Positions 13,771 through 60,794 of a DNA stretch of 64,000 nt are shown piece by piece. A program made the translations under genes and the position numbers. Under the pieces are notes generated by a model. The model saw only the letters and a program-made list of their open reading frames with translations, was not told the DNA's origin and did not search any database. Source of the DNA: Kiritimatiellia bacterium. GTDB lineage: Bacteria; Verrucomicrobiota; Kiritimatiellia; CAIVKH01. Where the stretch lies: the NCBI GenBank assembly GCA_027493775.1, contig JAOSKE010000003.1, positions 269,761 to 333,760 of the forward strand, read 5' to 3'. Each line of letters starts with the position of its first letter. Position 1 is the first letter of the stretch.

Positions 13771-13817
13771 TTCCAAGGGTTGGAAGTCCTTTTGACACTG
13801 ACTTCCAACCCTTGGAA
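13771..13817. repeat. Pair of TTCCAA-N3-TTGGAA palindromes, 32-bp spacing (locus A)
   Basis: ttccaagggttggaa at 13771 and ttccaacccttggaa at 13803. Confidence 0.9.
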
Positions 13818-13831
13818 GTTTCACAGACAAC

Positions 13832-15961
13832 TTACTTCTCCGTCAAATTCCAAACCCCATCCCAATCAGATTCCGCGCCCGAAGCGAGCGTTGAGAGCTT
13901 CTTCGCATAAACTCTCGACGGCGGATCGTCGGGTAGTTTTTCAAAAATGCCAAAGCGGCGGCCCAGCGCTTTTCTGTGACTGCTTTCAATCCCGCTTCAT
14001 AATCAGGAAGCCAAGAGGGCAGCGCAGCGCGGTCGAACGCGAGTGGTTCATAAACGCGGACGGGCGTTTTGCGGCCAACCACCCGGATCGCGCCCAATTC
14101 GCGGCCGAATGCCGCATCACCCGCAGCCTTCCACGTGCTTTCCGAGGCCATAATAAATGTGCCGAACGCCTTGTTTGCGCCTTCCAGGCGCGACGCAAGG
14201 TTCGCGGCGTCGCCGAGCATCGTATAATTGAAGCGCTCAGCTGAGCCCATGTTGCCGATGACGACATCGCCGGTATTCAATCCAATCCGCATCCGCACCG
14301 GCATTCCGGCGGCTTTCCCTGAAAGTTCTGACTGTTTTTCGCGCAACACGCTCTGACACCCCAACGCGGCGCGAATCGCTCGGGCCGCGTGATCCTCCTG
14401 TGGCACCGGCGCGTTCCAGAACGCGACGATCGCATCGCCGATGTATTTGTCCACATAGCCGCCCTGTTCCATCAGCACCTCGCCCATTTCAGAGAGATAG
14501 ACGTTGAGCAAATCAATGAGCTGCGTCGGCTCAAGTTTTTCAGAGAACGACGAGAATTTTTCGAGGTCAGAAAAGAACATCGTCAGTTCTTTGCGTTCGC
14601 CACCGAGCGACAACTTCGAGGGGTCGGCAATGATCTCATCAATAACCGCTTCGCCGAGGTATTGTTTGAACGCCGATTTGATGAATCGCTTCTGGCGGCC
14701 TTCCGTCGCATAGTTGACGATCACACCGCCGACCAGCGCGAGCGCGACACCCACTTCACCCGCCATAACCGGCCACCACCAACCGGCGTGATATGCCCAC
14801 ATGCCGACCAGCCACGGAATCGGGATCAGCACAATGAATGCAGCCACGCTCTGCCACGCGCTGCGTCCGGCAATGGTCGCAGCAGCGCCGAGGAGTGAAA
14901 GCAGCACCGTGAAGAGAGCAATCGGCCACACGGGCACATCCGCCAGCGCGTCGCGCACCAGCAGGTTGTCAAGCAGTGTCGCGTGCAATTCAACTCCGGG
15001 ATAGTTCCCCTCAATCGGTGTCGGGCGCAGGTCTTTCAGGCCCGGCGCACTAAAGCCAAAAAACACGTACGCATCGCGGAAGATTTCCGGGTCCACAGAA
15101 GGTTTGCCGCCCTCCTGCAATCGCAATTCCGATTGGATGATCGAAGCGGCGGAAAAAGACTGATGCGTTCCCGTCCTTCCGCGAAAACGCAGCAGTACGC
15201 GACCTGTGCGGTCTATCGGAATGAAGGCGTCGCGCAAGCGCAATGCGCCATTCTCAATTCGGACATTTGCATCCGGATTGGCGGCCAGATACGCGGCGAA
15301 GCCGAGGGACGGGAGGACGCTGTCATCGAACAGGGTGATTAGCCCCGCGCGCCGATAGACTCCGTCGCGGTCCAGCCGATCAGCGACGTTGGCAAGGAAC
15401 GCGGCGGGTTTCGCGATTTCCGGGACGGGAAATGCCGCGCCCGGCATGGCGATTGCCCGGGCGCGCCTCGGGGTGAGCCATTCTTTGACGCCTTGCACAC
15501 GTTCTGCGGGACGCGCAAGCCAATCGGGCCAAACGCGGGTTTGCGTCGTTTCCTTTCCCGTAAAAACCGCGCCGATAAAACCGGGGGCGCGACGGATCGC
15601 ATCTCCGAACGCCTCGTCATCCTCGACGCCATAGCCGGAAGGCTCGGTGTAAAGCACGTCGAACGCAACAGCCTTCGGATTTCCGCGCATCACAAAATCG
15701 AGCAACGCGCCGTACACCACACGCGGCCACGGCCAGGACCAGCCGCGATCTTCGCCCGCGCCCCAATCAAGACTCGCCTGATCGAGCAGGATGACCTTTA
15801 TCTGGCCAGTAGCGGGCGATGGTTTGGCGAAAAAATTTTACACGGCTCATCCATGTAATATTTTCCACACCGCTCAGGAGCGGACTCTTATACCAAGCCA
15901 ACAGGGCAATCAGCGCGGTGGCAAGGCCGAGCGCCAGAATCTGTAGGCTCTTTTTACGCAT
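13832..15961 (-). CDS. CHASE2-domain class III adenylate cyclase with C-terminal helical tail; apparent frameshifts near 15760 and 13945
   Basis: N-terminal TM, CHASE2 (AVAFDVLYTEPS, DRDGVYRR, YPGVELHAT), three TMs, FSDLEKFS, KYIGDAIVAFW, YTMLGDAANLASRLE. The alternative frame ends ...DWDGVWNLTEK* at 13832. Confidence 0.88.
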
Positions 15962-15980
15962 CCCTCCTCAACAGGCGCGG

Positions 15981-16907
15981 TCAAATCCCCGCCAACGCTT
16001 CTTGAAAACGCTGTACGCGCACAGCGGGAACAGGTACGTGAGGGGTTTTCTTGAGCATCGAGTCTAGGTCTTTCACGCGATCTTTCGGCGGCGGGTGCGT
16101 CGCAGCAAAATCGTGACCGCCGGGCTTGAGCTGAGACTCCATCCGCGTCAGCACATTCGGCAGCGCATGGGCGTCGTAGCCGATGCCCTTCATAATGCGC
16201 ACGGCGACCTCATCCGACTGTCGCTCCTGCTTACGCGCGTAGCCGCTGTTCATCATCGTGTTGCTGATGTCGGAAATGCTGCCCTCGAATGCTTCGGTCA
16301 GGGAAGACAGCGCATCGCCGCCAAAACTCTTTGCGCCTTCAACGGCCAGGATGGTGAGGGCGGAGGTCAAGCGGCTGCCCTTGATTGCGCGGAGCGCGTG
16401 CTGCAGTTCCACGTGCCCAATTTCGTGCGAGAGCACGGCGGCCAGATCGTCCTCGCTTTTGCACAGGCGCAACATTCCGCGCGAAACAAAGATGAACCCG
16501 CCGGGCGCGGCGAAGGCGTTGATCTCGTCTGAATCGAGAATCAAAAAGTGCCAGCCGCCAAACGTTTCAGGGCGGGCGGACGCAAGCGCCAGCGTTTGAC
16601 CGAGAAGGTTGATGTATTCCGTTGCCTGCGGATTATCGTACACCTTGAATTTGCTGACAATCGTCGCGCCGACCGCGCGGCCGATGTAGTATTCCTGCTC
16701 CGGCGTAATATCGGCAAAGGTCTTTTCCACGGCCTCGCCGGTCTTGCGAATGGAATCGCCTTGTTGCGGTGTAATGACGCCTGCCGTTTCCCCGACTACG
16801 GCGCCCACGTTTGCAATGGTTGAGCAGCCGGAAAGCAGCAGTCCAGCGCCGAGCGTGACAACAATGCCCGTGAGCCAACGACGAAAATATGCGTGAGATA
16901 AATTCAT
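15981..16907 (-). CDS. M48-family metallopeptidase, probable lipoprotein
   Basis: Lipobox LLSGC; INAFAAPGG; HEIGH zinc motif; YARKQERQSD; THPPPKDR. Confidence 0.9.
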   Translation of the reverse strand: MNLSHAYFRRWLTGIVVTLGAGLLLSGCSTIANVGAVVGETAGVITPQQGDSIRKTGEAVEKTFADITPEQEYYIGRAVGATIVSKFKVYDNPQATEYINLLGQTLALASARPETFGGWHFLILDSDEINAFAAPGGFIFVSRGMLRLCKSEDDLAAVLSHEIGHVELQHALRAIKGSRLTSALTILAVEGAKSFGGDALSSLTEAFEGSISDISNTMMNSGYARKQERQSDEVAVRIMKGIGYDAHALPNVLTRMESQLKPGGHDFAATHPPPKDRVKDLDSMLKKTPHVPVPAVRVQRFQEALAGI

Positions 16908-16919
16908 AGTCGTTCCCTT

Positions 16920-17393: not shown

Positions 17394-17443
17394 TTCCTGC
17401 TCCTATCTCAACTCCTTGAATATGAGACGCTCATTCCCAGGTT

Positions 17444-19258: not shown

Positions 19259-19300
19259 GGTTGTCCGATTTCGCGCATTGCGCCCTCTTCCATCGCACAT

Positions 19301-38009: not shown

Positions 38010-39014
38010 TTACTCTTTGATCAGCTCTTCCGCAATCTGGATGGCATTTTGCGCTGCGCCCTTCCAGATGTTGTCGCCGGAGCACCAGAGAACAAGGCCG
38101 TTGTCTGTGCTTTGATCCCTGCGAATTCGTCCAACGAGCACGTCGTCATGCTCCGAGGCATCGAGCGGCATGGGGTATTGCGCCTGCTTCGGATTATCCA
38201 CCACGCGAACGCCGGGTGAGTGAGAAAGAATGTCACGCGCCTGTTCGGGCGTGATCGGCTTCTCGAACTCGACATTCAGCGCAATACTATGACCGTTGAT
38301 CACCGGCACACGTGCGCAGGTGTTCCCCACGCGAATGGAATCATCGCCCAGAATTTTGTGCGTTTCCTTGCGCATCTTGACTTCTTCCGTGCTCTCGCCC
38401 GAATCGTCCTTGAACGAGCCGACAGACGGCAACACGTTGAATGCAATCTGGTGAGGATATACCTCATGCGAAACGTCCTTGCCTTCCGCCCAGGCACGAA
38501 CCTGATTTTCCAGCTCCTTCACAGCGGGAGCGCCGGTGCCGGACACCGCCTGATAGGTGCTGGCGACGATACGCTTGATCTTTGCCGCCTTGTGCAATGG
38601 CGCAAGCGGCATCAACGCAATCGTGGTGCTGCAGTTCGGGTTCGCAATCAGCCCCTGATGATTCTTCAACGCATCCGCATTGATTTCGGGAATAACGAGA
38701 GGAACACGCGGGTCCATACGGAAATCATCGCCGTTATCAATCACGACGCATCCGCGCTTCACCGCCTCCCAGCCCAGCATCTGCGACGCGCCTTTCGATC
38801 CCTCGGTTCCCGCAAAGAATGCGAAATCCATCCCATCGAACGCCTCCGGCGAAGCGACCTTCACCTGCACCGGCTCGCCGTCAATCACTTCCGTACGCTC
38901 GCTGCGCGCCAGAACCGTCAACGACTTCATCGGAAACTTGCGCTTTCTCAGGAGACGGACCATTTCAGTGCCGACCGCACCGATACCCACCACGCATACA
39001 TTATACTGCTTCAT
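38010..39014 (-). CDS. asd: Aspartate-semialdehyde dehydrogenase
   Basis: VGIGAVG, PLVIPEIN, IANPNCST, TYQAVSGTG, CARVPVINGHS, DNIWKGAAQNAIQIAE. Confidence 0.96.
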   Translation of the reverse strand: MKQYNVCVVGIGAVGTEMVRLLRKRKFPMKSLTVLARSERTEVIDGEPVQVKVASPEAFDGMDFAFFAGTEGSKGASQMLGWEAVKRGCVVIDNGDDFRMDPRVPLVIPEINADALKNHQGLIANPNCSTTIALMPLAPLHKAAKIKRIVASTYQAVSGTGAPAVKELENQVRAWAEGKDVSHEVYPHQIAFNVLPSVGSFKDDSGESTEEVKMRKETHKILGDDSIRVGNTCARVPVINGHSIALNVEFEKPITPEQARDILSHSPGVRVVDNPKQAQYPMPLDASEHDDVLVGRIRRDQSTDNGLVLWCSGDNIWKGAAQNAIQIAEELIKE

Positions 39015-39062: not shown

Positions 39063-40127
39063 TTAAACAAAACTCGCTACAAGGTCTCCGATCTCGGACG
39101 TGCCCAATCCCATGCGACCCGCCGCAAGCGACTTGATCTTACCACAATTCAGGGCTTTTGTCACGGCTTGCTCAATCGCAGCGCCCGCTTCGTGCTCACC
39201 CAAGGTATCGAGCATCATTCCCGCCGCAACAATCGCAGCGATCGGGTTGATTACATTCTGGCCTGTGTATTTCGGCGCACTGCCGCCCATCGGCTCAAAC
39301 ATGCTCACGCCTTCGGGATTGATGTTTCCACCGGCTGCAACTCCGAGACCGCCCTGAATAATCGCCGCAAGGTCAGTAATGATATCGCCGAACAGGTTCT
39401 CCGTAACAATCACGTCGTACCACTCCGGCTGCTTCACAAACCACATCGTCGCCGCATCCACATGGTTATAGTCCTGCCTGATGTCCGGGAAATCCTTGTC
39501 GCCGACTTCCTTGTGCGTGCGCACCCATAAATCGCCCGCATGCGTCAGCACATTGGACTTGTGCACCAGTGTCAGCATTTTCTTTTTGTTGCGGCGGCGG
39601 GCGTACTCGTATGCAAAACGTACGCAACGCTCCACGACCGGACGGCCATAAATCATCACCTGCGTCGCAATTTCCATCGGCGTTCCCTTCTGCACCACGC
39701 CACCCACGCCCGTATAAACGCCGCCGGTGTTCTCACGAACCACAACGAAATCAACATCCTTCGGCTCCTTGTCCTTCAGCGGACAATCTTCCGTGCGGTA
39801 GAGTTTTACCGGGCGGAGGTTGATGTACTGATCCAGTGCAAAGCGCGCCTTGAGCAAAATGCCGACCTCCAGCACGCCGGGCTTTACATCGGGGTGACCG
39901 ATCGCTCCGAGAAAAATTGAGTCCTGCTTACGGAACTCTTCGATCGCGGAGTCCGGCAATGTCTCGCCCGTTTTCAGATAGCGAGCGCCGCCGAAATCGT
40001 AGGGATGGTAATTCAGCTTGAAGCCAAATTTCGACTCTGCGACTGCGAGCGATTTCATCGCCTCGCGCACCACTTCCGGGCCTGTGCCATCGCCACCGAT
40101 TACCGCGACATTGTAAGATTTGCTCAT
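39063..40127 (-). CDS. leuB: 3-isopropylmalate dehydrogenase
   Basis: [55 protein letters not shown]. Confidence 0.9.
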
Positions 40128-40163
40128 CACTCATTCCTCTCTTGCGCCAGTTTTTCTGCAAAT

Positions 40164-40210
40164 TTCCAAGGGTTGGAAGTCCTTGCCCAAACAACTTCCA
40201 AGGGTTGGAA
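40164..40210. repeat. Pair of TTCCAA-N3-TTGGAA palindromes, 32-bp spacing (locus B)
   Basis: ttccaagggttggaa at 40164 and at 40196. Confidence 0.9.
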
Positions 40211-40297
40211 AATCAAAGGGAGTCGCAATGTATAGGCACTTCCTCTGCGCGTCAATAAGCGTGGTGATCCGTTCATGGCCGGAAAGGGTCAGTGCGA

Positions 40298-40373
40298 TGG
40301 CGTCCCCAACCGGATTCGAACCGGTGTTACCAGGATGAAAACCTGGTGTCCTAGGCCTCTAGACGATGGGGAC
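40298..40373 (-). tRNA. tRNA-Glu(TTC)
   Basis: GTCCCCATCGTCTAGAGGCCTAGGACACCAGGTTTTCATCCTGGTAACACCGGTTCGAATCCGGTTGGGGACGCCA. Confidence 0.97.
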
Positions 40374-44868: not shown

Positions 44869-47800
44869 GGCGTGGTCATCTGTCCATTCGGATTGGATAT
44901 TCCGCCCGACACCTGATAGCTGATTCCCGCGCCGGATCCATTGAATTCGTACACTTTGAAGAAGTAGGCCGTGGAGGCCGTGAGTCCGGTGACCGTGATG
45001 CTGTCATACGTATTCGGAGAGTAGGACTGCACACTTCCGACAACGAAGTTGTTTGAGCCAATTTGGCTGCCAGCGCCGAACACACTGTTTGCCGTGTAGG
45101 TAACGCCATTTTCAGGAGCTTGCGATGGGGCGGCGCCCTGACGAGCCACAATGATCCGGCCCTGACCATTGCCGTTTGTCCAGCCGATGGTCATCTGGGT
45201 TGTGCCCACTGAAGGGAAGGTGATGCTGTGCGCTTGGGTCTGAGGCGCGTTTGTTGGCGTGAAAACAATGTTCGTCGTGGAGTACAGGCTGATTCCACCG
45301 CTGTTCACGGCCCTCATCCGCCAGTAATTGGTTGTGAGGCTATTGAGATTTGTGACGGCAAAGGTGACGCCGTTGCCGGTCGCCCGCGCCTGATAGCCGG
45401 GAACAAAGGAGCCGAACGAAGAATCGGTGGAGACATCAAGGAGATAGTTTGTTGCTCCCATCGTGGCGATCCAGTTTGCCTGGAAGCTGTCGGACTGTAT
45501 GGCGGTGGCGGACAGAATATCTGGCGCGTTGGGCACGGTCCAGAACGTGGCATCATCCGAGTAGGCAATGCCGTTGTTGTTGCTGGCCCAGGCACGGAAG
45601 TAAATGAGCTTGCCGGCGGGCATGCCACTGCGCGCGTGCGAGAACACGCCGGTTGCGACGCCGCCTTCAGCCATGCTGTTGCCGGTCGGGATGGGGGTTG
45701 CTCCCCAAACCGTTCCGCGCGAAGTGATGGCGCTGCCGCCATTGGTTTCAATCGTTGCGCCAAGTGTCGCGCCGGATGCGGAAATGGCGGTTGCGGTCGG
45801 CAGGATGAGCGTGGGGAATCCGCTGCTGCTGCGACGGCCCAATGCGCCGTTACCTTGGAAGTCGCTCTGGCTCCACGACGTGGAGTTGGTGGCGCGAATC
45901 CAGTAGTAGTAATCCGCATCCACGACCGCTGTGGTATCCGTATAAACGTTAATTCCCGCGGCTACGGGTCCCGATGTGGCTCGCCGAGCCGGAGTTGTCC
46001 GAAGTGTAGCGGTATATCCCGTAGCCGGTTTCTCCCTGCACATCGCTCCATTCGATTTCCACGCGATTGGTAAAGGCGTTGTAGCTCGCGATCACGTTGT
46101 CCACGGTCGAGAGCTTGCGATAGCCGTAATCCCCGCTGCCAAATGCGCTATCACCTGCGCAATTGGCGGCCTTGATCCAGTAGTAGTAGCGCTGGCCGGG
46201 CGTGGCGCTGGCGTCGGTGTGAGTGGTGACATTTGCAGCTTTTGTCGCCAGATACGTGGCGGTTCCGGGATCATTGCTGGTATTGCGCCAGACTTCATAG
46301 CTGGACTCGCCACTGACATCATTCCAAGTGACAGTGATGTGAAGTTCGGATGCTCCATCCGACGCCGTTGCGTTCGGCGCGGGGGGATCACGTTGGTGCA
46401 ATATCCATCGGTGGCGAAGCTGCCAGTTCCAAAACGGCTTTCGCCCCTGCTGTTTTCCGCGTAGAGCCGATAGTAATACAGCGTTCCCCTGGACAGCCCG
46501 CTTACGAGGTCTGTGAGTTGGATGGCGATGTTTGTCGCCGCCAAGTTGGTGAAGCCGACGGAGAATCCGTAGTTTGTGGTAGGGCCATACCGGAACTCTG
46601 CAGACGTCGGCAGGCCGTTTGGCGTCACGGAGCCGCGGAGAATTACGCTGTTTTCCGTGATATCCGCCGGGGACTGAAGAGTGACAATCGGCGGCGCGGG
46701 GAAGTAGTTGGTGAGGCGCAGGACCGGCGGGGTGTACGGCAGCGGCATCGTCCAAAGCACTGAAGAGGCCAGGAAAGGCGTCCAGACCACGAGCGAGTCG
46801 TCCGCCTCAATCACAAAGTTATCCGCCAAGGCGTTTCCTGGAATAAACCTATACGTGCCGTTGGTGAGCACATAGATGCGCGCTTTGGAGCTCGCTATAC
46901 GAGCCGCCGCCACGGGCCAACACGCGAATTTCGTCGGCAAACCGCCAGAGACCCAGCGGCGCCCGCGTGAGGACGTTATTCAGCCCCGTTTCGGACATGC
47001 GTGTGGGACGTGGCAGATTTAGCGCAAGAACATTGTTTTTGTTCGGCTCGATGACGATGCCGTCCGGCTGATCGCTCGCCGGCACACGGCCCACCACCAG
47101 ATAATTGGTCGGGGCGCTTGAGATCGGAAGCAAAACGTCAAAACCTCTGTTGGGGTAAGGCAACGCCTGGGTGTTTGCCAAGCCCCCGCCGATTTCATAC
47201 TGCCAGCGGCCATCCGACGCAAGCCACCACGCGTTCGAGTCTGCCTCGGCGTCTGCCCTTGGCGTGTACACATACACCGAAGACGAGTCGGTCATGTCAT
47301 TGCCTGCCGGCATACGATTGGTTCCGAGGAAGTCGGCCAGCGTATTTTCAAAGGGCTGCATTCCCATGCCGATGAAGTTATGGCCGTTCGTCAACACAGT
47401 CTTGAGGGCCACCACAACCTGTGTTGCCGCGCTGCCCTGGCGCGCCCATGTTGGAATCCACGCATTGGCCGCAGCGATGCGGTAATAACGCATCCACTTA
47501 TTCGGCAAATCAATCGGCGCCACGCGATAGTTTGTAGTTCCCACGTCATAGCCGCCGACATCCACAAACTTCGTTCCCTGCACCGTCGCAGCCAGCTTCC
47601 ACTTCAGGTCAATGTTTATATAGTAGCCGGTGCCATCCGCATAAATGACATCGTAGTAGCTGTTGGAGCTTCCCTCCCAATACAACTCAGCTTGCGAGTT
47701 CACGTTGGCAAAAGCCTGCGTAATCGTGATCTGGCCCAGCATCACGGTTTGCACGCCGGAGATCGGCCCGAGGTTGCCCGCGCGGTCGCGCCCGGCAATG

Positions 47801-50800
47801 GCGACGCGATATTCCGAACCCATCGCCAGGCCATCAATCGTGAGCGCTGACGTTGTGTTGGTCGCAAGGGCAAGGAACATGCCCGCGTCGAAATACAGAT
47901 CGTTCGTCGTCGGATCGCCCGAATCCTGCGTGTAGTACACACGGTACGTATCCCACGGCGAAAGATGAGCGCCGCCGCCATCCGAGAGCGGGGTCCAGTT
48001 CAGGTCAATTTCCGAGGTGTCATCAATCTGACCGGGAGATGCCGCGAAATTCACCACTTTCACCGGCGGCGTGAAGTCCAGATACAGCACGGTGCTGGTC
48101 ACTGCGCCCATCGCGCCATCGTTCGGACGATCATCGTCCGCGTCAATCGCATACAACCAATTTGTGATGATGCCTTCGGTCATATTGGTCAGTGTCACGG
48201 CACTCGTCAGGCCGACATTCACGCCCTCCACCATCGTTGTCGGCGCGATGTTGTTTGTGACCAGCCGGAACGTCGCCACACCGGAGGCGTCATGCACCGA
48301 GCTGGTATCCCAAGAGTAGGTGACCACCGGATTGTTCGTCCAATACACTGCGGTGCTGACAAAGTTGCTCGCGGCGCTTGGGCCGACCGTGTCGTCGTCC
48401 ACCACAAGGATCAAATTCGTCCCATCCGCAAAGAACGGGCTGTCGAACACCTCACCGAAACAGGCGCCGAGGCTGCGGGCAGACCAGAAGACCGAATAGT
48501 ATCCGGTCATAACATTCGCGTATGGGATCGCGGTCAAGTAGTCGTTGGTGACATAAACATCAGCGCCGCCATCGGAAACATTTGTCCAAAGGTCGGCAAT
48601 CACCGTGGCGTCATTCGGGTTGTGAATCTTGAAGCCCGGCTCATAGGGGTCGTCAATCGCGACACCGATCGGATGATGGATGGTCATGGCAAGCGACCAG
48701 CCGCCCGCCCGCAACTCGGCATCCGTCAGGGTGGCCATCGGCGCAGGCGTCGCGTTGACCAACAGGTTGCTCGCCACCGGGTCATCGCCATTGCCCGCTG
48801 CAACACTGATCAAGAAGTTCAGATTCGTCTGCATCCGATCTCCGACACGGTCGTTGTCCGCGTCCGCCACAGTGACGCGCACGGTATAAATGCCGCAATC
48901 CGCAATTCCCGCCAGATTCATTGGCGCCGTCCAGATGCTCTCCCAATCCTTCGCATCGCCCTCGTTCACGGGCGCATTGGCGAAGCCACCCGACGCAACA
49001 ACGTATCCGAGCGAATCAATCACGGCGTATTGCGGCGGCGCGGAGGTGAAGGCAATGCCGCTTGTCACATCGCGCACGCGGCCGGAGATAACGACCGAGA
49101 AGAGATCGGCGGCGTTGGTAATTGAAATGCCGCCATTGATGGTGAAGAAGCCGATCTGCGGGATGTCATAATCGTCATCCACAACCGTGAAGGGCACGTT
49201 CGTCATCCGCTCGGAGGAGTCAAACGGACGATCTGCATCGGCATCCGCCGCCCAGAGAATCGCCGTGTGGATACCCAGTTGAATGGTGTAGTAGTCGCCA
49301 CCCGGGATCGTATTGGAAATACTGTTCGCAGCCTTTGAACCGTGCGCAAACGCGGTCGTGAAGAAGTTCGAAACCACCACGCCCGCATTGGTGTTCAGCA
49401 CCAGGTAGCGAGGCGCTGCAACATTGCTGGCCGACAGGCCGCTTCCGAGGTCCTGCAACATCCCCGCAATGTTCCAACGTCCGAGCAACAGGTCTTCATC
49501 CGTAATGACACCACCCGCCGCGCAGAGGTCGGGGAAGCTGAAGCTGAATTGCTTCAGGTCATACACAATGTCGTCATCGCCGACCCAATTTTCCTTGTCG
49601 CCGACGTAGTAAAGGATTGTTTCGCGGGTTCCCGAAATGGAGAGGATGTTCGTGTTGATGATCACGTTGTTCAGATCGCCCTGAGCCGTGCCCACCGCCA
49701 CTGCAGTATAGCCATCCGCCAATCCGGGCGGCAGTGCAGTTGTGTGCGAGTCCGTCGCATCCACGTCCCATACACCGTTCGTGCGGTCATTGAGCGCGTA
49801 GATGAAGTTCGGATTCGCGTCCGGACCTTGGTAGGCAAGAATCTGTTCACCTTCGATATTCGGGGCAAAATTGCCGTTGGTCGCGACGATTCGGCCGTGA
49901 CTGATGACAGGGTTGTTGGTCGCAATCCAGCGCACCACCGTTCCTGCTCCCACACAGTTTGTTGCGCGCCAGGTGAGTGTGCCTTCCATGTTCCTGAACT
50001 TGTTCTGGCTGGCCATCCAGCCATTGTCCGTGAATTTGATTTCCGTTCCCGTCGGAATATCCACCAACGCAACCCACGCAAACGAGTCATAGTTGCTGCC
50101 GCCGCCAAAGCCGCCTTTGGTCAGGGTGTTCATCGCAATGATTGCGATGTCGCCAGCAATCAGATTCGTACGGGACGGATCCGAGCATTCCCCACCACTG
50201 CCACAATCGGAGCCCGTGCCGCCACCCACCTCGACACTTAGAAAATTCGGCGGTTCGGTATCATCATCAATGACCAAAAATCTATTGGTGCCCGGATTGA
50301 TCAGTGCGCTGTCGCTTTCCGCGCCGTAGCACAATCCTTCAGTTTGCGCGGACCAGACGATTGAAAAACGACCCGTTGTGATCAGGTTCGTGTCCGCCGC
50401 AAGCATCGGGTAGTTCGTTGCATAGTACGTCGCACCGCTCTTGACCAGATTACTCCAGGCAATTGTTCCGCTCCCATACACATTGCTGCCGTCCGCGCCC
50501 AGGACCTTGAAGCTCGGCGCATTGGGGCCGTTCGTAATAATGTTCTCCGAAGGATGCGTGAAGGCCACCGCGACGCGCCAACCGCCGGTCGCAATCATCT
50601 GATCCGTCAGCGTCACCGTCGTCGCGGAGGTATTGTTCACGAGCAGATTTTCCGCCGTCGGAGGGTCTCCCTCTTCGCCGCCCGTGGTAATGACCAGCGC
50701 CACGACCTCGTCCGATGCGGCATCATTCATCCGGTCGTTATCCGCATCCGCCGCGAACACGCGCACGGTGTAGCTGTAACCGCAGGTGAGGTCTAAACCG

Positions 50801-53800
50801 GAGAACGCGGCGCTCACCCCTATCGGCGTGAGCTTCCCAGCGCCCTCGGCGCCGCCCGACAGCGTGTTGCTCGCCAAAATCGTCACGCCATCCACATCAT
50901 AGAACAGTAGATACGGCGGACTGCTTGTGAACCCGATGCCGCTTCCCGCGTCGTGCAGCAAGCCCGTCACGGTGAAGCCGGACATCGCGGTCGCCACATC
51001 AATCGTTGTGGACAGCCCATCAACCGCAAAAGCGCTCGGCGTCGGCGGCAGATCATCGTCGTCCACCACCATGAAGAGGTTCGTGCCGTCCGCAATCGCG
51101 CCGCGATCAATAATCATCGCTACGCAGGATCCCTGATTGCTCGCGGACCACACCACATAGTGCAGGCCGGTTTGGATAACACTGTATGACGCTGCCGGAA
51201 GATTGTTGTTCGTGAAATAATAGGTGTTGCCCACATGTACCCCATTCGTCCACGGCATTTCGGCAATCACATTGCCCACCGCGTTGGTCACACGGAATGA
51301 CGGCGAGGAGGCATTGGTAAAGACCCCCACCGGATGCGACAGATTGAACGCCAAGCTCCAGCCGCCCGTGGCAATCGTAGAGTCCAGAACCTGCACGTAG
51401 GGCGACGCGACACTGCCATTCACGAGCAGATTGCTCGCAATCGGATAATCCGCAGGGCCGCCCACGCCGGTCGTACGAATCACCAGCACCGCCTGCGTAA
51501 TGGACATCTGGTCATTCGGACGATCCAAATCCGCGTCCGCCGCGAACACGCGCACCGTGTAATCCTCGCCGCAGTTCAACACCCCGGCATAGACCATGCC
51601 TGTCGCAGCATTTGCCGCCCCCGCATAAAGTCTGTTGCTCTGAACAACCGCGCCGACGCTGTCCAGCAGGACAAAGTGCGTCGTTCCGTCATACAACACG
51701 CCCGACGCATCCGTGAGCATCCCCGTGATGACCATGCTGCCAGAGCCTAGGTCAAAATTCGTCGTTCCGCCAGCCAAGAAGAAAGCGGACGCAAGCGGCG
51801 CATTCGTGTCGTCGTCAATGACCGGGAAGATCAGCAGGTTGGTCGATCCGAGCCGGTCCATATCGCCGCGATCATCATCCGCATCTGTGACAAAGACCAA
51901 GGTCGTGTAGGTGCCCAGCGCGACATAATTTGTGCTCGCGGCAGCAGGTGCAAGCACCGTTGCCGGCATGGAGGTGGTTGCGCCGGCATTCGGGAACGGC
52001 GTGACAAAATCATCGGTAACGACCTGTTGTCCGAGTGGATTCAACGTGATGAAGTACGGCGCGAACGCATTGCTGACGGCAAGGCCGCTATCCACGTCAT
52101 GCACCATGCTTGTGATCGTGTATCCGCCCCACGCGATGTCGCCATCCGTCAGGACGAGATCGCTGGACGCCGAGGTAAGCCGCACATCGTCAATGCGGAA
52201 TTCGACGGTGGACGAGGATGTAAAACGGATATACAGGTTCGTGCCCGCCAGGCTGTCGGGCACACTGTTTGTGCGATAGTGCCACACAGCGGTTCCCGCG
52301 CCCGTCGGCAGGCTGACCGCGCCCAACGAAACCCACGTGGTTCCGTTGGTGCTGCCTTCGAGCGCCATCGTGCTTCCGGACTCGGCCGTCGTGTTCTTTC
52401 GAATACCGTAATACAGCTTCATGCCGGACATGCCGGACGAATCAATGCCGGCAATCATGAAGTACTCATTGACGGCGTTAATCATCACATTCATTGAACC
52501 AGACGCGCTCGCATAGTCGCTCGGTCCACTCGGATTTGTTGTTCGCACGTCCGCTGTGCCGGTCATGGTGAACGAAACGTTGTCAAAACGATTGTTGCTC
52601 TCGTGTGTTGCAATGGAATCGCCGCTGCTGCCCGCCGTTCCCATGGTCTCAACAAAAATCTCGTTTTCCGCGCCGCCTGCGCCAACTCCGTTAATATCCG
52701 TCATCCCAATGACTGGCGGAGTCGCGTCATCGTCCTTCACCACCAGAAAACCGTATTGCTGGTTTGTGATCCCCGTCGTGTCGCCAATGCGGTCGTCGTC
52801 GGCATCAGACATGGTCACCGAAATGCGGTTGGTCTCAACCCGTCAACGGTGTTGGTCATCATCCGCGTGATTTCTGTATTGCTGAAGGGAGTGGCCCACG
52901 TCCAGACGTTCGTCGCGCGAGCATTTGTGGTCTGTGCAAAGGTGGAACTCAACGTCGCATCAAAGTTTGCGACGTTGCTGATCACGATGCCATCCAGCGT
53001 GAAGTTCATATTGGTTGCTGGATTGGTGGTGCCCCGATTAATGCCCGAGTCGTCACGCGCACCGAGCCAGAAGTGCAAGGGGTTTCCCGCGCTCACCGAA
53101 ACCAACTGACCGTCGGTCGCGCTGTAGACCCAGTTGTTCGATCCTCCGCTACCCGTCAGATTTGTGCCGCCAATTGAAATTTGCATGGCGCGCAAGGCGC
53201 CACCGTTCACGACCGGGGCATGGATCGTTGCCAACGCGGGCGGGGTCCACGTCGTCGTCAATGACGGTAAAGACGAAGTTGGACGTGACCGCGTTGCCCG
53301 TCAGGTCCACCGCGCTGACGGTCGCCGTATAGATGCCCAGAACCACATTCGCCTGCGGCACGGGGCCGAAGGTTCCCGCGAGCGCGGATGGCGCGGTCGT
53401 GCCGTTCGCCGGCGCGGTGGAGAATTTATTTGAGGCAATCGTCACGCCGACGCTGTTGCGGATAACGAAGTACGGTGTTGCGGGGCCATTGGAAACGCCC
53501 GCGCCGACATCGGACACCATGCCGGTCACCGAAAAGCCCACGCGGATTTGCGCATCGGTATTGGTCCCGCCATCCAGATTGAACCCGAAGAGACTCGGCG
53601 CAACGCCGTCCTTTGTCGTCACGCTGCCGGTCGTGGAATTATCACTCACACAGTTTGGCGTCGTCGCGCGAACGCGATAGTAATACGTGACGGCGGATTC
53701 CAGGCCCGTGACTGACACGCTCGTCCCGGCCACCGAACGATCTTCATAGCCACTCACATAGCTGGATCCCGAATTCGTCCAAGTGACGTCATCAATCGAC

Positions 53801-56800
53801 AGACGCTCCGACCCGCTATTGGTGATCATGATGGTGAACGAGCCGGGGAAGTTCAGATTTTGCACGACCGCCGTCTGGATCGCGCTGCCGTAGGTGATGT
53901 TGGTCGCCACCTTGGTTCCGTTGACAAAAATATCAAAGGTATGCGCTTCCCCGCTGCCGAACGCGCGCTGATGTGTCACGCGAAGTTCGCTCACACCACC
54001 GGTAATAGACTGAGATACCAAGTATGCGCCGCTTGCGTTCTGGAGCGTAAGCGCGTCGCCATCAATCGTCTGATCCGTGCGTGCCTTTTCGGCCGTCCAC
54101 ACAATCCCATTCGCATTGGTCCAGTCGCGGGTCAAGTAGCTGCTGACCGTTCCTCCGCCGATGATGCCCCGACCGAAAGGTTCGACGCCATAATTGCCTA
54201 CGCCGCCGAAGGTGGGCGAAATGGAGACGTCCACGCCATACCCCGTCGCGCCGACAAGCGGCGACCAGTGCAAGGTGAAGTCCGTGGTATTGGTCGGATT
54301 CACATACAGACCCGTCACCACCGAGCTGAAGCAGGCGGCGGTGAAGTTGCTGACATCGCCGTAGGATATGCCGAGCGCGTTCTGCGCGTAGGCGCGTACA
54401 AAGTAGGTTTGGCCGGGCACAAGGCCGGTCAGACTGCTGGCATAGATGCCAAGGCCTGTTCCGTCCGAAGTGGCACTGTCGGCAATGGTCGGCGTTCCGT
54501 TTGTCGTCCACACTACGCCGCGATTGGTCACCGTCAGCCCACCATCGCTCATGACATCGCCGCCGGCGGAGGCCGTGGTTTCCAGAATGGAGGAGATCGG
54601 ACGCGCCAACACGGTCGGCAAATGGCGGTCCACCAAATCCGCCCAGGATTTGGCCACACGTATTTCGTCGAAATACACCCGGCCTATCGTCCCAACATCC
54701 GCGCCGCCGATCAGCATGATGCCGTCAATCATCGCCGGAGCTCGTCGCAGTTGCGGTCGCAGCCCACGTCACCGGCTCCACCATCGGCACGCTCTCCGTG
54801 CGGTGATAGGCCATCGCATAAATCTTCCCCGCATCGAGATCATATTTGCCGATCAACAGGTAGGTGTTGTTGGTGTTCACGGAACGACCATAAATGTCGT
54901 AGGCCGAAAACACCCGACCGGCGCCATAGGTATCAATACCGAGCGAGTAATCGTGCCCGCCGTCCGAAATTTTTCCGACAAAGCCCGTTTCCGAGCTACC
55001 GCTCAGAAAACTAATGCCCGCAAATTTGTTCGGCCCTTCAAACTCGTAGCCGACATACGCCGCGATATAAACCGCGCCCGTTGAAATCGGCGCAAAGAAG
55101 CGCTGCACACGGCTCGTCGTGCTGATGCCCGGATCGTCCATCTTGATGATGTTCGCCGCATTCGTCGGATACGAATCCACCGTCGGGAAGGAAATCTCCG
55201 CGTGATTGTTCGATAGAACCGTCCATGTCCCCGCAGAATTCGTCCACGCCGTCGTCCACCCCTGCCCACCATTGCCCGACGGCAACAACAACGAAAGGCT
55301 GTTCGTGTACGCGACCTGATCAACGATTTCCTCCGGCCGATACAGCGGCATGGTCACGTTGCCGAGGGGCGTGCGCGTCGCGGTGTAGTTGCCGTTGAGC
55401 GTGTACGCCGCATAATAATTGGTCGAACCCTGCGCCACGATGTGCTCTAGCGCGCCCGCCGAGGGGCCGATATAAATCACACGCGCGCTGCCAATCACAT
55501 CATCCACGCTGTACGGAACGCCCTGCGTCGGGTCCACCGCGATCGCCTCATCATCGTGCAAGATCAGCGTCTGCACCCCGGCCTGCGGCGTCCAACCCAG
55601 ACGCACCATTTCCTTGCCGTCCGCAATCACCGATCCGCCGGCCACCGGCGGAATATTCGTCACCGTCACGGTAATCTTCGCATGTTGCGGCGAGTTGGAT
55701 GCGGTGCCGCTGGTGACGATGAGCCCGCCGGTGTGAGTGCCGACCGCGAGGTCCGTCACATCCAACGACAAGGTATGCGCCTGACCGATGCCCGCGCCGA
55801 GGGTGCCCAATGTCGGTGAAACAGAAATCCAGGCCGCATTCGTCGCAACGTCATAAGACAGCACACCGAGGCCGATATTCGTCACGGCAAACGAATCCAT
55901 CACCGGGCTGCTTCCACGCATCACCGAAACCGTGAACGCGGTCGGCGTGAGACCGATCCCCGGCGTGCCGCTGGAGGGGATGATATCTGACCATTTGGTC
56001 GCAATACGGACTTCATCGAAGGCAACCACGCCGGGATAGTTGTTATCAAAACCGCCCGTCACCAACTCGATGCCGTCCACGTAGGTGCGGTCACTCGCCG
56101 CCGTCGCCGTCGCATCCCAGACCCCCGGTTCAGCCTCGGGAACCACGTCCGTGCGGTAGTACGCCTTTGTCGCCAACTCGCGCGTCGAAAAGTTATAGCG
56201 CCCGAAGATCACATATACATTGCCCGTGTTGGAAGAGAACGAGTTGATGTTGTAGCTGGAGCTTGCGGGTCCGCCGCCGTCAAAACTGTCAAGTCCAAGG
56301 AGGTTCCAGTCCCCTATTTCACCAATGAACGCGCGCTCCACGCCGTTCGACAGCAGACGAATGCCCGTGTATTTCCCCTGGTCGCCATATTGCACGGCCA
56401 TGATGTACGAAAAATACAACACGCCGCTCGTTACCGGAGAGAAGTCGCGCCGGGCCTTCATCTCCGTGTTATTCACGGTATTCGTCACCAAAACGCGCTG
56501 CGCCGCAATCGGCGGGTAGTTCGAGTTAACATACAGATTCGGCGTCGGCCCGTTTGAAGAAACGGTGAAATTCCCCGCCCCCACCGACCACGCGCCGCTC
56601 CAGCCCTGACCGCCGTTCAGCCCGTTCAGCGAGACACCGTTTGTGTATCCGAATTGCTCCACGTGCTCGATCGGTCCATACGAAGCCATCGAGACCGTTG
56701 CCGTCACCCCCGGCGAGTAGTGGTCATTGTTGATCGCGTAGAACACATAAACATCCATGCTGCCCGGCGGCACCACATGATCGAGATAAGCGCCGCTGCC

Positions 56801-59800
56801 GCTGTACACCACCTTCGCGCCGCCAAACGTGTCGCCGACGCTATAGGGCTGACCCTGCGAAGGCGGCGAAGTCGGTCCGTCGTTTTCGCGGTGAACAACC
56901 ATCACGTTGAAGCCCGCCGGCCGCGTCCACTGTACCCGCACCAGCTCTTTGCCATCCGCCGTCGCGCTCAACGCCGTCGAATCAGGGATGTTGGTCAGAA
57001 CCAACGTCACATTAACATTCACGGCATTCGATGCGGTGGGGCCGCCATCCACGGTAATCGTTCCACTGTTTGTTCCCGCGGAAAGTCCGCCGATGTTAAA
57101 CGAAATCGTCTCCTGCTGGCCGGCGGTCTCCGCCAGTTGCGCCGAGACCGGCGAAACACTCAGCCAGGAGACATTCGTCGTGATCGTGTAATCCAGGCGG
57201 CCCCGCCCGACGTTCGTGACGCCGAAACTCGCACTGGCCGGCGCCGTACCGACCATCGTCGTCACCGTGATGCTCGGCGGGGCTCACATAGGCGCCCGCC
57301 AAGACGCCCACACCCTGGACATCAAACGTATAGGGCGACTTGGCCGCTACACTGTTTGTAAAGACCAGCTTCGCCGTTCGCGTTCCTGCTGCATTCGGAT
57401 CAAAGCGGACCTGGAACGTTGTGGTGCCCCCGGCGGGCACAGAAGCCGCAGGCTGACTGACCACAATGAAATCCGCCACATGGGTCCCCTGCGTCACCAC
57501 GTTGTTCAGACTCAAGGAGGAGTTGCCGGCGTTCGTAATGGTGTAGGTTCGTACCACGTTAGACACATTCACGCCAACCGAGCCAAAGTCCGTGCCCTTC
57601 GCAAACGTTGGCGAGGTGTCGCCATTGGCAATCAGCGCGAGGTTGGTTCCCAACACCGCGACGTCCGGCGCCACCAAGACCGTCGTCACCGAACCGGTCG
57701 GCGAATAGCCGCTGTCGCAATATTCACCTTGCGCGACGACGCGGAAGTAATACGTCACCAACGCGGTCAATCCGGTGACAGAAGCACTCGTCCCACTGAC
57801 CGGCCGGGCTTCATACCCCGGCACAAAGGCATCTCCGCCGCCGTAGGACGTCCAACTGAAGTCATCAATATAAATCGTCACCGCAGTGCGATAGATCTGT
57901 ATCTTGTTCACCGCCGGATTGCTGATCGCAATGGAAATATTGGTTATGGATGTGCCGACGCTGAACGGAGAGCCCGGAGCGGCGCTAAAGGTTGCGCCGT
58001 CGTTCGTCGAGATGTTGATCTGAAACGCGCCGGACGCCGTACTCGCGCTCGCATAAAACGAAATGTCTTTGACGCCATTGCTCAAGGTCGGCGTAATCAC
58101 CATAGCGCCAGTCTGGCTGCGAAGCTGCAGTGAATAGGATCCGCTGACCTTGCCAGCCGTGCCGCGAATCACGCCATTCGCCTGACCCGACCACTCTCCC
58201 GTTGCGAGCGAGTAATTCGTGGTGGAGGTGTAGCCGGTAGGAAGCCCCGTTTCAAAGTCTTCCGTATCCGTAACGCCTTGTCCGACAAACTGCGCGTTTG
58301 TGCTGACATCCAACAGGTAATTCGTCGCGCCGGACGCGGAAGACCAACTGGCCGTAAAGTCAGTCATATTGGTTGCACTGGCCCAGATGGACGCGGGCGG
58401 CTGTGGACAGGTTGTGGCGCTCCCACTCGCAAAGCTGGCCGTGCGATAATTTTCCGCGCCAGCGCCGCCGTTGAAGTTATACACGCGAACGTAATACTTC
58501 GTTCCGGCAGTCAGGCCACTTAGGTTAACAGAAGTTCCACTGCCCTTATAGACCACATAGCCACTGCCCAGCGCGGTTCCACTGCCATACGTGGGGCTCG
58601 CGGTGTAGGTCGAGCCATCTGTCGGATTCCCGCTCAAATCGCTGCTCGCTCGGACAACAACAAGGACCTGTGTGCTCACTCCGGTCCAGTTGATGGTCAT
58701 GGAGGTTTCCGTGACACTCGTGAACGCCTGCAGCGTCGGCGCAGCCCCAGGCTCCGCGGCCATCGTGCTCGCGGACGCCGTCACGCCGGTGGAATAGTAG
58801 TTATTGTTAACGGAATAGAACTTGTAATCGTAGCCCCGATCCCCCGTCAGACCGGAGTCCGTCGCCGAGGTGCCCGACCCCTTATAGACCACTACGCCGC
58901 TGCCAATGCTCCCGTTCACGGAGTAGGAAGTGCCCTGCGACGGCTCCGTCCACGACTGCGACGTCAGTTTCCGCACAATCATCACGTCGTGGCTCTGCGC
59001 ATTTTTGCTCCACGACAGATCGATCATCGTCACCGGATTGCCGTTGTTTCGCGTCGCATTCGGGCTGGTGGGGCTATTGATCGGGTTCACCGTGAAGAAG
59101 TTCGTCGCGAAGAGGCTGCCGCCCGTGGTGCCCTCCCAACCCACGTCGGCGTAATAGACACACCCGCCGGTATTATCAAACCGGCCCGCATAGTACCATG
59201 TGCCCGTGGAGATGAAGACGTGCTCGTTCGTCTTGGAAATCCAGACGCGGTTGTTCACACCATCCATGCGCGACCAATCGGCACTGCGCCAGGTCCAACT
59301 GGTTCCATCTTGCGATGTGCCCACTCCATATTCCACCGTCCAGCCCGTCGTGTCGCGCGCGAGCGCAAATTCGTATTTCCCGGTCAGCGAATCGCCGAGG
59401 AAATAGGTGGCCAGCGGATTGCCTTGATTATAGAGCGCATGCCATTCGGTCGAACAGCCGGACGACAGCGTCGTGCCGTCGCCCGTGGCGCCAAACGCCG
59501 TCTCCACATTGACGCCATTTCGCGCCTTCACCTCAAAATAGTACGTTGTGGAAGACGCCAAGCCCGTCGCCGTCTTCGTGCCCCACGTGCTCTTGGTCGC
59601 CCAATAAGCCGAGGCGCCCCACGTGCCATCGCTTTGCAGATACTGGTTGTCGCTCGTTCGGCGAATGGCGAACTCCGTCGAACTCGGGTTGCTATTCTCA
59701 TTGATCGTCACATCTAGCGAGGACGCCGTCGCGTTGTTCACCGTCGGCGCGCTCGGTGTATTCGCCAGCGTCCACGTGTTCGATTCGTTGCCCAGCGCCG

Positions 59801-60794
59801 TTCCCACGCTGTTCTGCGCATAGGCGCGGAAGTAGTATCGCGTGTTCACCGAAAGGCTGCTGATCGTTTGAGTGAAGGAGCCCGTCCCGCTTCCGATTGC
59901 CGTCTTGTTGTCGGCAATGGTGACACCGGCTGTCGTTTTGTACACCACGCCGCGATTCGTCACCGACGCCCCGCCATCGCTCGTGACATTTCCGCCCAGC
60001 CTCATGCTCGTCGTGTTCGTCTCCGTCGCAGCCGCCGTCTGCACCGTCGCCGTCGTCGCCGCCGCATCAACCGACCCGCCGATGTCCAAGCCATATCCCG
60101 AGGTGTTGTAGAAACCCCAGCCGCCCGTTGACGTCCGCCCGCTCGCGTAGTAGCGAAGCGTCACGGTGTTCGTCGCGTCGACACCCTGCAGTGCCGTCAC
60201 GCCGGAAAAATCCCATGCCCGGTTCAGCAAGGTGCTGACATTTGAGGAGCCAATCAGCGTGAATGAGCTTCCGTTGAGACTATACGCCCACTGATCCGCC
60301 ACGCCCGGAGTAGCATAGAAGCTCGACGTGCCATTAAACTGCGCCACAATTCCGGTAACGGACAGCGTGTACCCCGACGAGGCCGAAAGCGTGACCTGAA
60401 AATAGTCGTTGTTCGCCGTGGAAATACCATTATTTTGAAAACCGACGGTTCTGAACGAATTCACGCCCGCGCTCGCGCCCGCCCCGCTTCCACGAGTAAT
60501 CACAGCGGAGGCATCCATGTTTGCATTGTACACGGAAGCCGTCCACGTCGCCACGCTGCTGGCTCCGCTAAAGTTCCATCCGGCAATTTGCGCGGCAAGA
60601 CCTGACGGCACAGCGACCCCGAAAAATATCGTCGCAAAAATGAAAAACTTCCAAGGGTTGGAAGTCTTGCGGCAAACGAGTTCCAAGGGTTGGAAGTTTT
60701 GCTCTGAGGGGTTACGCTGTTTCGGGATAGAACTCGACCGTGACCGCCCACGAGCAGTCAGCCCCCTTCCAAGTCTGACCTCCTGTACACTCAT
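44865..60794 (-). CDS. Giant secreted adhesin-like protein (~5,300 aa) with FN3, choice-of-anchor-D-like, BACON-like and acidic cadherin-like repeats; seven apparent frameshifts
   Basis: ORFs 57096..60794, 54725..57265, 53149..54732, 52815..53261, 46849..52818, 46092..46940, 45949..46755 (3' part) and 44865..46043 overlap and join in mid-domain. Only one signal-like hydrophobic stretch was seen (FFIFATIFFGVAVPSGLAAQ). Confidence 0.8.
60649..60695. repeat. Pair of TTCCAA-N3-TTGGAA palindromes, 32-bp spacing (locus C), inside the 5' end of the giant ORF
   Basis: ttccaagggttggaa at 60649 and at 60681. Confidence 0.9.

Follow-up and report, generated by a model that had tools for sequence, protein, structure and literature searches.

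Why does a 15-bp palindrome recur as pairs of exact copies at three loci in a 64,000-nt stretch of the Kiritimatiellia contig JAOSKE010000003.1 (the whole stretch analysed here, hereafter the window)? These pairs, which we call doublets A, B and C, had been singled out from the letters of the window alone, and this original prediction offered two explanations for them: phased binding sites for a dimer-of-dimers protein, or a lineage-specific miniature mobile repeat. We find that the doublets are real, highly non-random members of a class-wide family, and we class them as helically phased operator arrays or as extragenic palindromes akin to the repetitive extragenic palindromes (REPs). The family is previously undescribed, and we found no description of the motif or of a comparable repeat in the literature on Kiritimatiellota.

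The core, TTCCAANNNTTGGAA, matches the window exactly six times, with starts at 13771, 13803, 40164, 40196, 60649 and 60681, and was absent from each of 100 dinucleotide-preserving shuffles of the window. The start-to-start distance is 32 bp in all three doublets. Rescanning the window at one or two mismatches yielded no additional cores and sites with three mismatches occurred at background level, so that the copies in the window are either perfect or absent. The original prediction is thus reproduced in all six coordinates, and its description of the loci stands as well: the spacers differ yet all begin GTC(C)TT, the second copy at locus A is inverted (centre CCC against GGG), the Pfam assignments agree with the gene contexts that it gave (the gap between a cyclase gene and a metallo-β-lactamase (MBL)-fold gene for A, upstream of leuB for B and the 5′ end of a giant gene for C), and the motif is none of parS, CIRCE and the GTAG-headed REPs. 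Its expectation of many copies genome-wide receives indirect support, as the contig depth over doublet B was 10-13 times that over the flanks in four metagenomes, corresponding to about 10-13 further copies with similar spacers in the window's genome; no strain-level variation of doublet B was seen in four metagenomes.

To place the doublets in a wider context, GTDB species representatives were scanned for two cores separated by any gap of 2-32 bp (start-to-start distances of 17-47 bp), which returned at least 113 stretches. The fetched loci (designated L plus a number below) total 840 kb, and all pooled counts and tests refer to the matches listed. Among these matches, the hosts comprise at least about 25 metagenome-assembled genomes (MAGs) of Kiritimatiellia/Kiritimatiellales and one isolate (Pontiellaceae), and nearly all carry the labels Kiritimatiellia, Kiritimatiellales, Tichowtungia, Pontiellaceae, ‘Lentisphaerae’ or Verrucomicrobiota, which places them in the phylum Kiritimatiellota of the Planctomycetes-Verrucomicrobia-Chlamydiae (PVC) group. 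The term ‘lineage-specific’ was therefore too narrow, since the family spans the whole class or order. The window's organism itself is abundant in activated-sludge and bioreactor metagenomes.

Spacings within the family are confined to about two, three or four helical turns, and half-turn spacings are absent. Of 172 distances of up to 47 bp between neighbouring cores (113 loci listed), 66 are 31 bp and 87 are 32 bp, together 153, with minor classes at 21-23 bp (7 distances) and 41-43 bp (8 distances); spacings of 24-29 and 33-40 bp did not occur once among the 172, though the search pattern permitted them. A scan of viral contigs for single cores, which is unbiased as to spacing, gave 31/32 bp again. 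The cores are likewise near-invariant: the 840 kb contain 355 cores with perfect arms, while the in-phase copies that carry a single mismatch number 47 and those that carry two number 10 (∼7:1 perfect to one-mismatch), the arms are invariant in the TTCCAA genomes, and an SSS centre is present in >90% of cores. The conserved unit exceeds 15 bp, reading TTT-TTCCAAG-S-CTTGGAA-AAA in most genomes and AC-TTCCAA-SSS-TTGGAA-GT in the window's lineage, and is separated from the next by a G+C-rich spacer interior of ∼10 nt that has neither consensus nor dyad symmetry and shows little similarity within a genome. Among the matches listed, arrays contain one perfect core in 49 cases, two in 110, three in 18, four in 7 and eight in one, and reach up to 12 units once degenerate units are counted. 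Their density ranges from about three arrays per 64 kb in the window's lineage to one every 1-3 kb, or roughly one per gene boundary, in the dense MAGs (DP16D_bin.41 and LaPlata bin-260).

Two of the three window doublets are kept at orthologous sites in relatives, namely those in the leuB leader and in the cyclase-MBL gap. The series of relatives was built from LeuB homologues and their contigs, with LeuB identities to the window of 100-83% (88-96% for the nearest relatives among those compared). The leuB-asd pair is kept in L111, L207-L212, L214 and L217 as well as in the window, and nine of the ten genomes with this arrangement (the window, L207, L111, L208-L212 and L217) carry an array of 2-4 units in the leuB leader; the linkage of tRNA-Glu, array and leuB also recurs in L207, L212 and L217. 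In L207 (LeuB 95%) the array has three units versus two in the window, the difference being a clean 32-bp one-unit indel between flanks that are ∼98% identical. Compared with the window array (40164-40210), that of L207 (124-202) has TTCCAAGCCTTGGAA and GTGGTTAAGCGCAAAAG as its extra unit, and the indel involves no duplication apart from the core. L111 and L208 have four units each, with intact cores and homologous spacers that are 75-88% identical, and L209 has three. In L217 (LeuB 83%), the cyclase-MBL gap contains TTCCATGCGATGGAA and TTCCATGTGATGTAA, 31 bp apart and orthologous to doublet A, so that this doublet is conserved too. Beyond this series, other syntenic pairs, among them L085 and L172, have array sites in common although their flanking proteins are only 47-57% identical. 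Empty sites also occur: the window position orthologous to the L141 array, the second core of L107 (missing in L180) and the leuB leader of L214.

The position of the leuB arrays relative to the promoter is conserved as well. The sigma70-like promoter upstream of doublet B (Table 1) has a −10 element that ends 16 nt before the first core; L207 has an identical copy, L111, L208 and L209 have TTGACG-N17-TATATT equally far from the array, and in L210 the first core overlaps the −10 element. Judged by this predicted promoter, the leuB arrays would lie from about +10 onwards, where a downstream operator is expected, and doublet B would span about +10 to +56 of the leader.

The sequence of the core also differs between lineages in symmetric dialects. 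These alter the centre, the flanks and the arms and keep the dyad symmetry (TTCCAT..ATGGAA, TTACAG..TTGTAA), and the dialects of centre, flank and preferred period differ from MAG to MAG. The leuB array of L212 consists of two units of TTCCAG[GA]CGTTGGAA, that of L211 of two units of TTACAGACGTTGTAA, in which positions 3:13 have gone from C:G to A:T in both units, and that of L217 of two units of TTACAT[GA]GCATGGAA; in L217 the change of positions 6:10 from A:T to T:A is found at both loci. The units of L210 are degenerate and include the doubly changed TTCCAGCCGCTGGAA.

The arrays show no preference for a particular gene arrangement. Gene calls for this purpose were rough, and since arrays lack stop codons in all frames, many ‘intragenic’ calls are artefacts. 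With such calls, 74 intergenic arrays lie between tandem genes, 20 between divergent and 20 between convergent genes, which amounts to no bias; the median distance is 29 nt (often 1-13 nt) from the upstream stop and 56 nt to the downstream start, and some intergenic regions, for example in L187/L189, are made solely of array. A promoter function, with TTGGAA as −35 and TTCCAA as −10 element, was rejected because some arrays separate convergent genes or directly follow stop codons, and the ordinary sigma70-like promoter upstream of the leuB arrays counters it further. A few arrays are genuinely in frame, their cores translating as FQ[GA]LE, SK[AP]WK or P[RS]LG. Two MAGs (L109 2333-2379, L157 5326-5372) have a pair of this kind in a gene that fuses ThiD to ThiE: within the ThiD domain, the conserved motif TPN[FV]PELG encodes a near-core, and a perfect FQ[GA]LE core lies exactly 32 nt downstream of it in a variable loop, without insertion. 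NamZ of L107 (6647-6693) contains an in-frame doublet with its length unchanged relative to PDB 4k05, while in NamZ of L186 (2385-2463) a three-core array constitutes an insertion of ∼26 residues. Further in-frame arrays occupy the interdomain linker of NadE and the middle of an hsdS gene (L096 769-815; L138 4781-4890). As the doublets in ThiD and in NamZ of L107 arose without a change in length, cores can form in place at the phased distance, which transposition does not explain.

The reading that best fits these observations, and in which our confidence and our reservations are about equal, is that the family consists of operator arrays in helical phase, bound by a dimeric protein that oligomerises on the DNA and co-evolves with its sites. 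The first of the two explanations originally offered is thus the better-fitting one, on the strength of the integer-turn spacing, the dyad symmetry, the orthologous conservation and the symmetric dialects. The data show the motif, with its phasing, symmetry, orthologous conservation, dialects and placement relative to the promoter; that a protein binds it, in which oligomeric state and with what effect on transcription, is what we infer. Each core would be a dyad of 19-21 bp, bound as double-stranded DNA by one homodimer, and neighbouring dimers would touch on the same face of the helix, giving the period of 31-32 bp (three turns) and, more rarely, of two or four turns. Arrays may thereby nucleate dimers of dimers or longer assemblies. 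The protein would be conserved across Kiritimatiellia and would co-evolve with its site, giving rise to the dialects. For the leuB doublet, just past a conserved promoter, the simplest guess is that the bound oligomer would act as a repressor or roadblock of leuB-asd; at the other two window doublets it would sit either 40-55 bp upstream of where the gene starts or right on that point. Several lineages have sites that multiplied to nearly every gene boundary, and the protein would there behave as a nucleoid-associated or insulator-like factor instead of a local regulator. A more far-reaching version, which we offer tentatively, is that of a sequence-specific chromatin or insulator system in which a putative dimer polymerises on one helix face, co-evolves with its sites, retains ancient targets such as leuB-asd and covers thousands of sites per genome in several lineages, with new sites formed in place. 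There is a substantial chance that the family marks an undescribed DNA-binding system.

Known regulators provide precedents for such a geometry. NrdR recognises two partially palindromic boxes of ∼16 bp with a linker of 15-16 bp, that is, with a period of 31-32 bp, which are bound by a tetramer; binding is best at integer turns, usually three, with four tolerated (PMC12051234; PMC13584703). The present family resembles this arrangement in its 15-bp cores, 16-17-bp spacers and minor classes of ∼2 and ∼4 turns. However, NrdR boxes have another consensus and occur only before nrd genes, at 1-3 per genome, whereas the family comprises hundreds of sites or more, with near-perfect cores and up to 12 units; its flanking genes (leuB, MBL-fold, adhesin-like and others) are unrelated, and only the geometry is shared. 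Proteins of the Lrp family bind clusters of semi-palindromic sites that are helically aligned two or three turns apart, and form higher oligomers (PMC2995911). The likeness to Lrp/AsnC extends to 6-3-6 or 7-1-7 dyads of ∼15 bp clustered on one face at 31-32 (21-23, 41-43) bp, to a global, nucleoid-like behaviour and to the amino-acid genes downstream of arrays. The SELEX consensus of Escherichia coli Lrp, YAGHAWATTWTDCTR, is itself a semi-palindrome of ∼15 bp with a 6-3-6 layout. Lrp sites are degenerate with an A/T-rich centre, however, and the cores of the family are near-perfect with a G/C centre, so that the geometry of dyad clusters agrees and the consensus does not; moreover, arrays also lie after stops, between convergent genes and inside genes. 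ComK of Bacillus binds two dyad boxes (AAAA-N5-TTTT) as a dimer of dimers, in spacing classes that differ by whole turns, and has a small regulon. The whole-turn classes of paired dyads are common to both systems; the motif, the size of the regulon and the absence of long arrays set ComK apart. The genes downstream of arrays in low-density genomes, namely leuB-asd, dapA (in two lineages), glyA, hisA/F and a gene for an Opp-like binding protein, are suggestive of an amino-acid regulon and bring to mind the feast/famine regulators, as the Lrp/AsnC proteins are also called.

Several points weigh against operator arrays. It is unusual for the regulon of a transcription factor to consist of near-perfect cores and hardly any degenerate sites, and a classical regulator is insufficient to account for arrays in every intergenic type, 1-13 nt past stops and in frame within enzymes. 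The amino-acid enrichment is post hoc and comes from a small sample, and genes for secreted proteins next to arrays are not enriched, a result that also led us to reject a secreted-protein regulon. A phmmer search with an E. coli Lrp query found no Lrp/AsnC homologue in the open reading frames (ORFs) of ∼1.6 Mb (∼1.1 Mb of it from Kiritimatiellia, >20 genomes), a sample too small to establish absence. Finally, L131 (58-390) contains eight units with a period of 41-43 bp, five consecutive ones sharing a 26-nt spacer, which shows a recent tandem duplication of whole 41-bp units; families of whole units with conserved spacers exist in Ga0209573 and CAZFSE, and within one genome several loci may share the same rare variants. 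These recurring variants, whole-unit families and the duplication in L131 point to some copying process.

Such copying is at the heart of the strongest alternative, a selfish or domesticated repeat similar to REPs or to REPINs (paired REPs) that is mobilised or copied in trans, by a transposase of the REP-associated tyrosine transposase (RAYT) type or another one, or by gene conversion, that is kept where tolerated and that has at most generic effects, for example on mRNA stability or supercoiling. We consider this explanation unlikely, yet take its REP-like copying component seriously as a rival. REPs are short extragenic palindromes with hundreds of copies, often past stops, that are vertically inherited over long periods (PMC3116915; PMC3337134; PMC8049555), and REPINs are REP doublets with fixed spacing (PMC3116915; PMC3337134). 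The family is similarly extragenic, high in copy number, single or clustered, often within 13 nt of stops, present in every intergenic type and arranged in doublets, and the rare in-frame insertions (NamZ of L186, hsdS, the NadE linker), the clean one-unit indel between the window and L207, the tandem units of L131 and the repeated whole units and rare variants described above would suit a mobile element. Yet the GTAG/CTAC head is absent (the flanks being TTT/AAA or AC/GT), core orientation is random with no requirement for an inverted pair, and the spacers, unrelated in most genomes (Ga0209573 and CAZFSE being the exceptions), lack the self-complementarity of a REPIN-type hairpin unit. The arms are identical across an order-level clade, at ∼50% identity of orthologous proteins, and sites are held at orthologous positions; spacings restricted to integer turns are not expected from transposition, and the doublets in ThiD and NamZ (L107) formed without a change in length. 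No Y1 transposase was found among the small genes checked beside or between arrays, which is a weak test given genome pieces of 8-21 kb.

For the miniature mobile repeat of the original prediction the verdict is accordingly mixed. Copying is seen in the one-unit indels, the tandem duplication and the two genomes with conserved whole units, but the remainder speaks mostly against it, as spacers are mostly unrelated, terminal inverted repeats and target duplications are missing, and some doublets were formed in place. The family also differs from miniature inverted-repeat transposable elements in that the cores are the sole repeats and internal sequence is not conserved. Clustered regularly interspaced short palindromic repeats (CRISPR) require repeats of ≥23 nt, spacers of ∼26-72 nt, long arrays and cas genes, whereas the family has repeats of 15-21 bp and spacers of 10-17 bp, and its arrays, mostly of two units, are dispersed over hundreds of loci. 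Two other repeats share some of its features. The dRS3 element of Neisseria (ATTCCC-N8-GGGAAT) is a palindrome of ∼20 bp in hundreds of copies that alternates with variable intergenic segments, as the present cores do, but the spacers of these neisserial intergenic mosaic elements (NIME) are long (50-150 bp), form repeat families of their own and lack helical phasing. HIP1 of cyanobacteria is a palindrome found throughout its lineage and kept in orthologous places by selection, not transposition, features that recall our family, but it has 8 bp, is mostly intragenic and does not cluster.

A second alternative is that the element acts as transcribed RNA, its short hairpins or a pairing of core1 with core2 serving as attenuators, processing sites or stability determinants, possibly together with an RNA-binding protein. 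Several features speak for it. Doublet B lies in the leuB leader downstream of a conserved promoter, doublet C lies within RNA contigs of five metatranscriptomes, and many arrays adjoin stop or start codons. The opposite centres at locus A create a perfect 18-bp inverted repeat with a predicted RNA fold of −33 kcal/mol, and doublets B and C fold at −19 to −24 kcal/mol; the proximal core of doublet C followed by its T-run scores as a terminator, and the dialect changes at 3:13 and 6:10 preserve pairing. Nevertheless, the tests that separate DNA from RNA mostly went the other way. In the pooled loci, mismatches in degenerate in-phase cores are mostly single and uncompensated, with no excess of compensated over single ones. 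In transition variants the strand that tolerates G·U pairs is the sense strand 13 times and the opposite strand 16 times. The orientation of the centre triplet is independent of the direction of transcription (GGC/GCC 41:46, GGG/CCC 27:23), and neighbouring cores with GSC centres are direct in 36 cases and inverted in 39, which leaves no preference for complementary centres. No self-complementarity was found in the inner spacers, and since these lack dyad symmetry the doublet is not selected as a single long hairpin; a long hairpin of the REPIN type is ruled out by this lack of symmetry together with the lack of an orientation preference.

A general role as terminator was rejected likewise. 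The flanking runs of most genomes have the opposite order to those of a terminator, with T residues before the core and A residues after it. Canonical terminators are scarce; arrays do not stand in for them, and they show no enrichment next to arrays. Only the proximal core of doublet C scores as a terminator, and RNA contigs continue across this doublet. Furthermore, 20 arrays lie between divergent genes and many in leaders. Neither the doublets nor the transcribed stretch next to doublet C matched an Rfam family. Because of the strand, compensation, orientation, spacer and flank tests, and because spacings of 10.5n bp have no reason in RNA, the data point to a symmetric protein that recognises double-stranded DNA rather than RNA structure, and we regard the RNA explanation as quite improbable.

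A self-marking or uptake-type signal that spreads by molecular drive, in the manner of DNA uptake sequences (DUS), uptake signal sequences (USS) or Chi, with a surface DNA receptor or a nuclease-modulating factor favouring DNA with phased cores, so that better matches would spread wherever they are tolerated, is the least probable explanation by our reckoning and very doubtful. In its favour are the large excess of perfect over one-mismatch cores, the lineage-specific dialects, the copies on phage-like contigs, a ComEC homologue in a relative and the formation of cores in place within coding sequence without indels (in ThiD at 32 nt from the TPNxPE near-core, and in NamZ of L107). Against it, the uptake sequences known so far are short and asymmetric, scatter uniformly and are frequent within genes, whereas the cores are palindromic, phased, clustered and largely intergenic. 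Low-density genomes retain a few specific sites that look regulatory, the leuB leader for example. Evidence of competence is lacking, and many bacteria possess ComEC.

The features of the window that surround the doublets are collected in Table 1. All three doublets sit on the upstream side of minus-strand genes.

Table 1. Doublets, promoter and neighbouring genes in the window (positions in nt of the 64,000-nt stretch).
Feature	Position	Strand	Details
Doublet A	13771-13817		cores 13771-13785 (centre GGG) and 13803-13817 (centre CCC); spacer GTCCTTTTGACACTGAC
Doublet B	40164-40210		cores 40164-40178 and 40196-40210, both GGG on the + strand; spacer GTCCTTGCCCAAACAAC
Doublet C	60649-60695		cores 60649-60663 and 60681-60695; spacer GTCTTGCGGCAAACGAG
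MBL-fold gene	12866-13717	-	Pfam Lactamase_B_2; ATG (13718) 53 nt from doublet A
CHASE2 + adenylate/guanylate cyclase gene	13843-15720	-	Pfam; stop 25 nt from doublet A
asd	38010-39014	-	Pfam Semialdhyde_dh; forms with leuB an operon downstream of doublet B
leuB	39063-40127	-	Pfam Iso_dh; ATG (40127) 36 nt downstream of doublet B
Predicted sigma70-like promoter	40227-40255	-	TTGACG-N17-TACATT; consensus match conserved in relatives
tRNA-Glu(UUC)	40298-40373	-	upstream of promoter and doublet B
Giant secreted fn3/Ig-like protein	57096-about 60692	-	Pfam; ∼1200 aa

Doublet C abuts the region that encodes the signal peptide of the giant protein, the hydrophobic core of which is specified by ∼60600-60645. 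The candidate start of the giant gene is a TTG within the distal core (60690-60692), the sole canonical in-frame start that gives a normal signal peptide. ORFs opening at the TTG of the distal core are present at all three loci (13719-13812, 40125-40205 and 60600-60692, minus strand) and share the beginning ME-x5-TSNPWK; that of A ends 4 nt before the MBL ATG, that of B ends in a TGATG overlap with the leuB ATG and that of C continues into the signal peptide. A leader peptide or upstream ORF starting from the core TTG was dismissed as a general property, since across the family there are 41 cases versus 26 and 29 in control frames. The giant gene belongs to a run of very large minus-strand genes (46849-60692; 1987, 527, 843 and about 1200 residues) with fn3, BACON, purple-acid-phosphatase-N and Ig-like domains, probably a cluster for cell-surface or secreted proteins. 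An IS3-family insertion sequence (HTH_Tnp_1, HTH_21 + rve) lies at 61803-62850, 1.1 kb from doublet C.

The metatranscriptome contigs are unstranded, sparse and too thin to place transcript ends, and we gave them little weight. They define a transcribed stretch at 60583-61006, comprising doublet C and ∼310 nt upstream of it, in five metatranscriptomes (X25, X26, X27, X34 and X35), with contigs over the doublet at 60583-60937, 60634-60854 and 60647-61006; the body of the giant gene, unlike this stretch, is almost uncovered. The stretch has no Rfam match and no convincing ORF. It is probably the long leader of the giant gene, and alternatively may be a small RNA that abuts or includes doublet C. 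A transcript end at 60647, 2 nt beyond the outer core in X27, was discarded, as it was not reproduced and X34 and X35 read through. At leuB, a contig of X28 covers the gene from 39900 onwards and stops at 40130. This point, 3 nt ahead of the ATG and at a distance of 41 nt from the centre of the proximal core, may be a 5′ end or a mere drop in coverage.

Some observations outside the window touch on the same elements. L216, which has neither an array nor asd downstream of leuB, encodes an IclR-family regulator (9047-9856) divergent from leuB, with TTACAC...TTTGTAA in the intergenic region. A ComEC/Rec2 homologue (DUF4131 + Competence) and HU/IHF-family proteins are encoded in relatives (L209 15272-17404; L175 4856-5176; L217 16941-17222), and in L175 a canonical terminator and, beyond it, an array come after the HU/IHF gene. 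Two phage-like IMG/VR contigs (L024 3003-3330, L025 2786-2977) carry arrays of 7-12 units with a period of 31 bp, whose units combine a conserved left arm, CTTCCAA, with a degenerate right arm; these arrays lie just upstream of DUF5681 and large-terminase genes, the expected place of a pac/cos site. In Prevotellaceae (L092 3516-3552, L176 261-296; GC 0.44-0.45) the same 15-mer forms a 22-bp tandem repeat, probably through unrelated local duplications.

For annotation, the family has practical consequences. Because none of the six frames is closed within an array, ORFs run on through it, which breaks ORF callers, and the family can mislead the annotation of repeats, terminators and start codons in these MAGs. 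Gene regulation and chromosome organisation are almost uncharted in Kiritimatiellota, a PVC phylum of importance for the degradation of polysaccharides in sediments, guts and wastewater. A near-invariant phased dyad with symmetric dialects provides a bait for the protein and, across lineages, a co-evolution series for its recognition code. The range from a few sites to one array per gene boundary would allow one to test how a regulator becomes an organiser of the nucleoid, or by what route a repeat may hijack a host protein.

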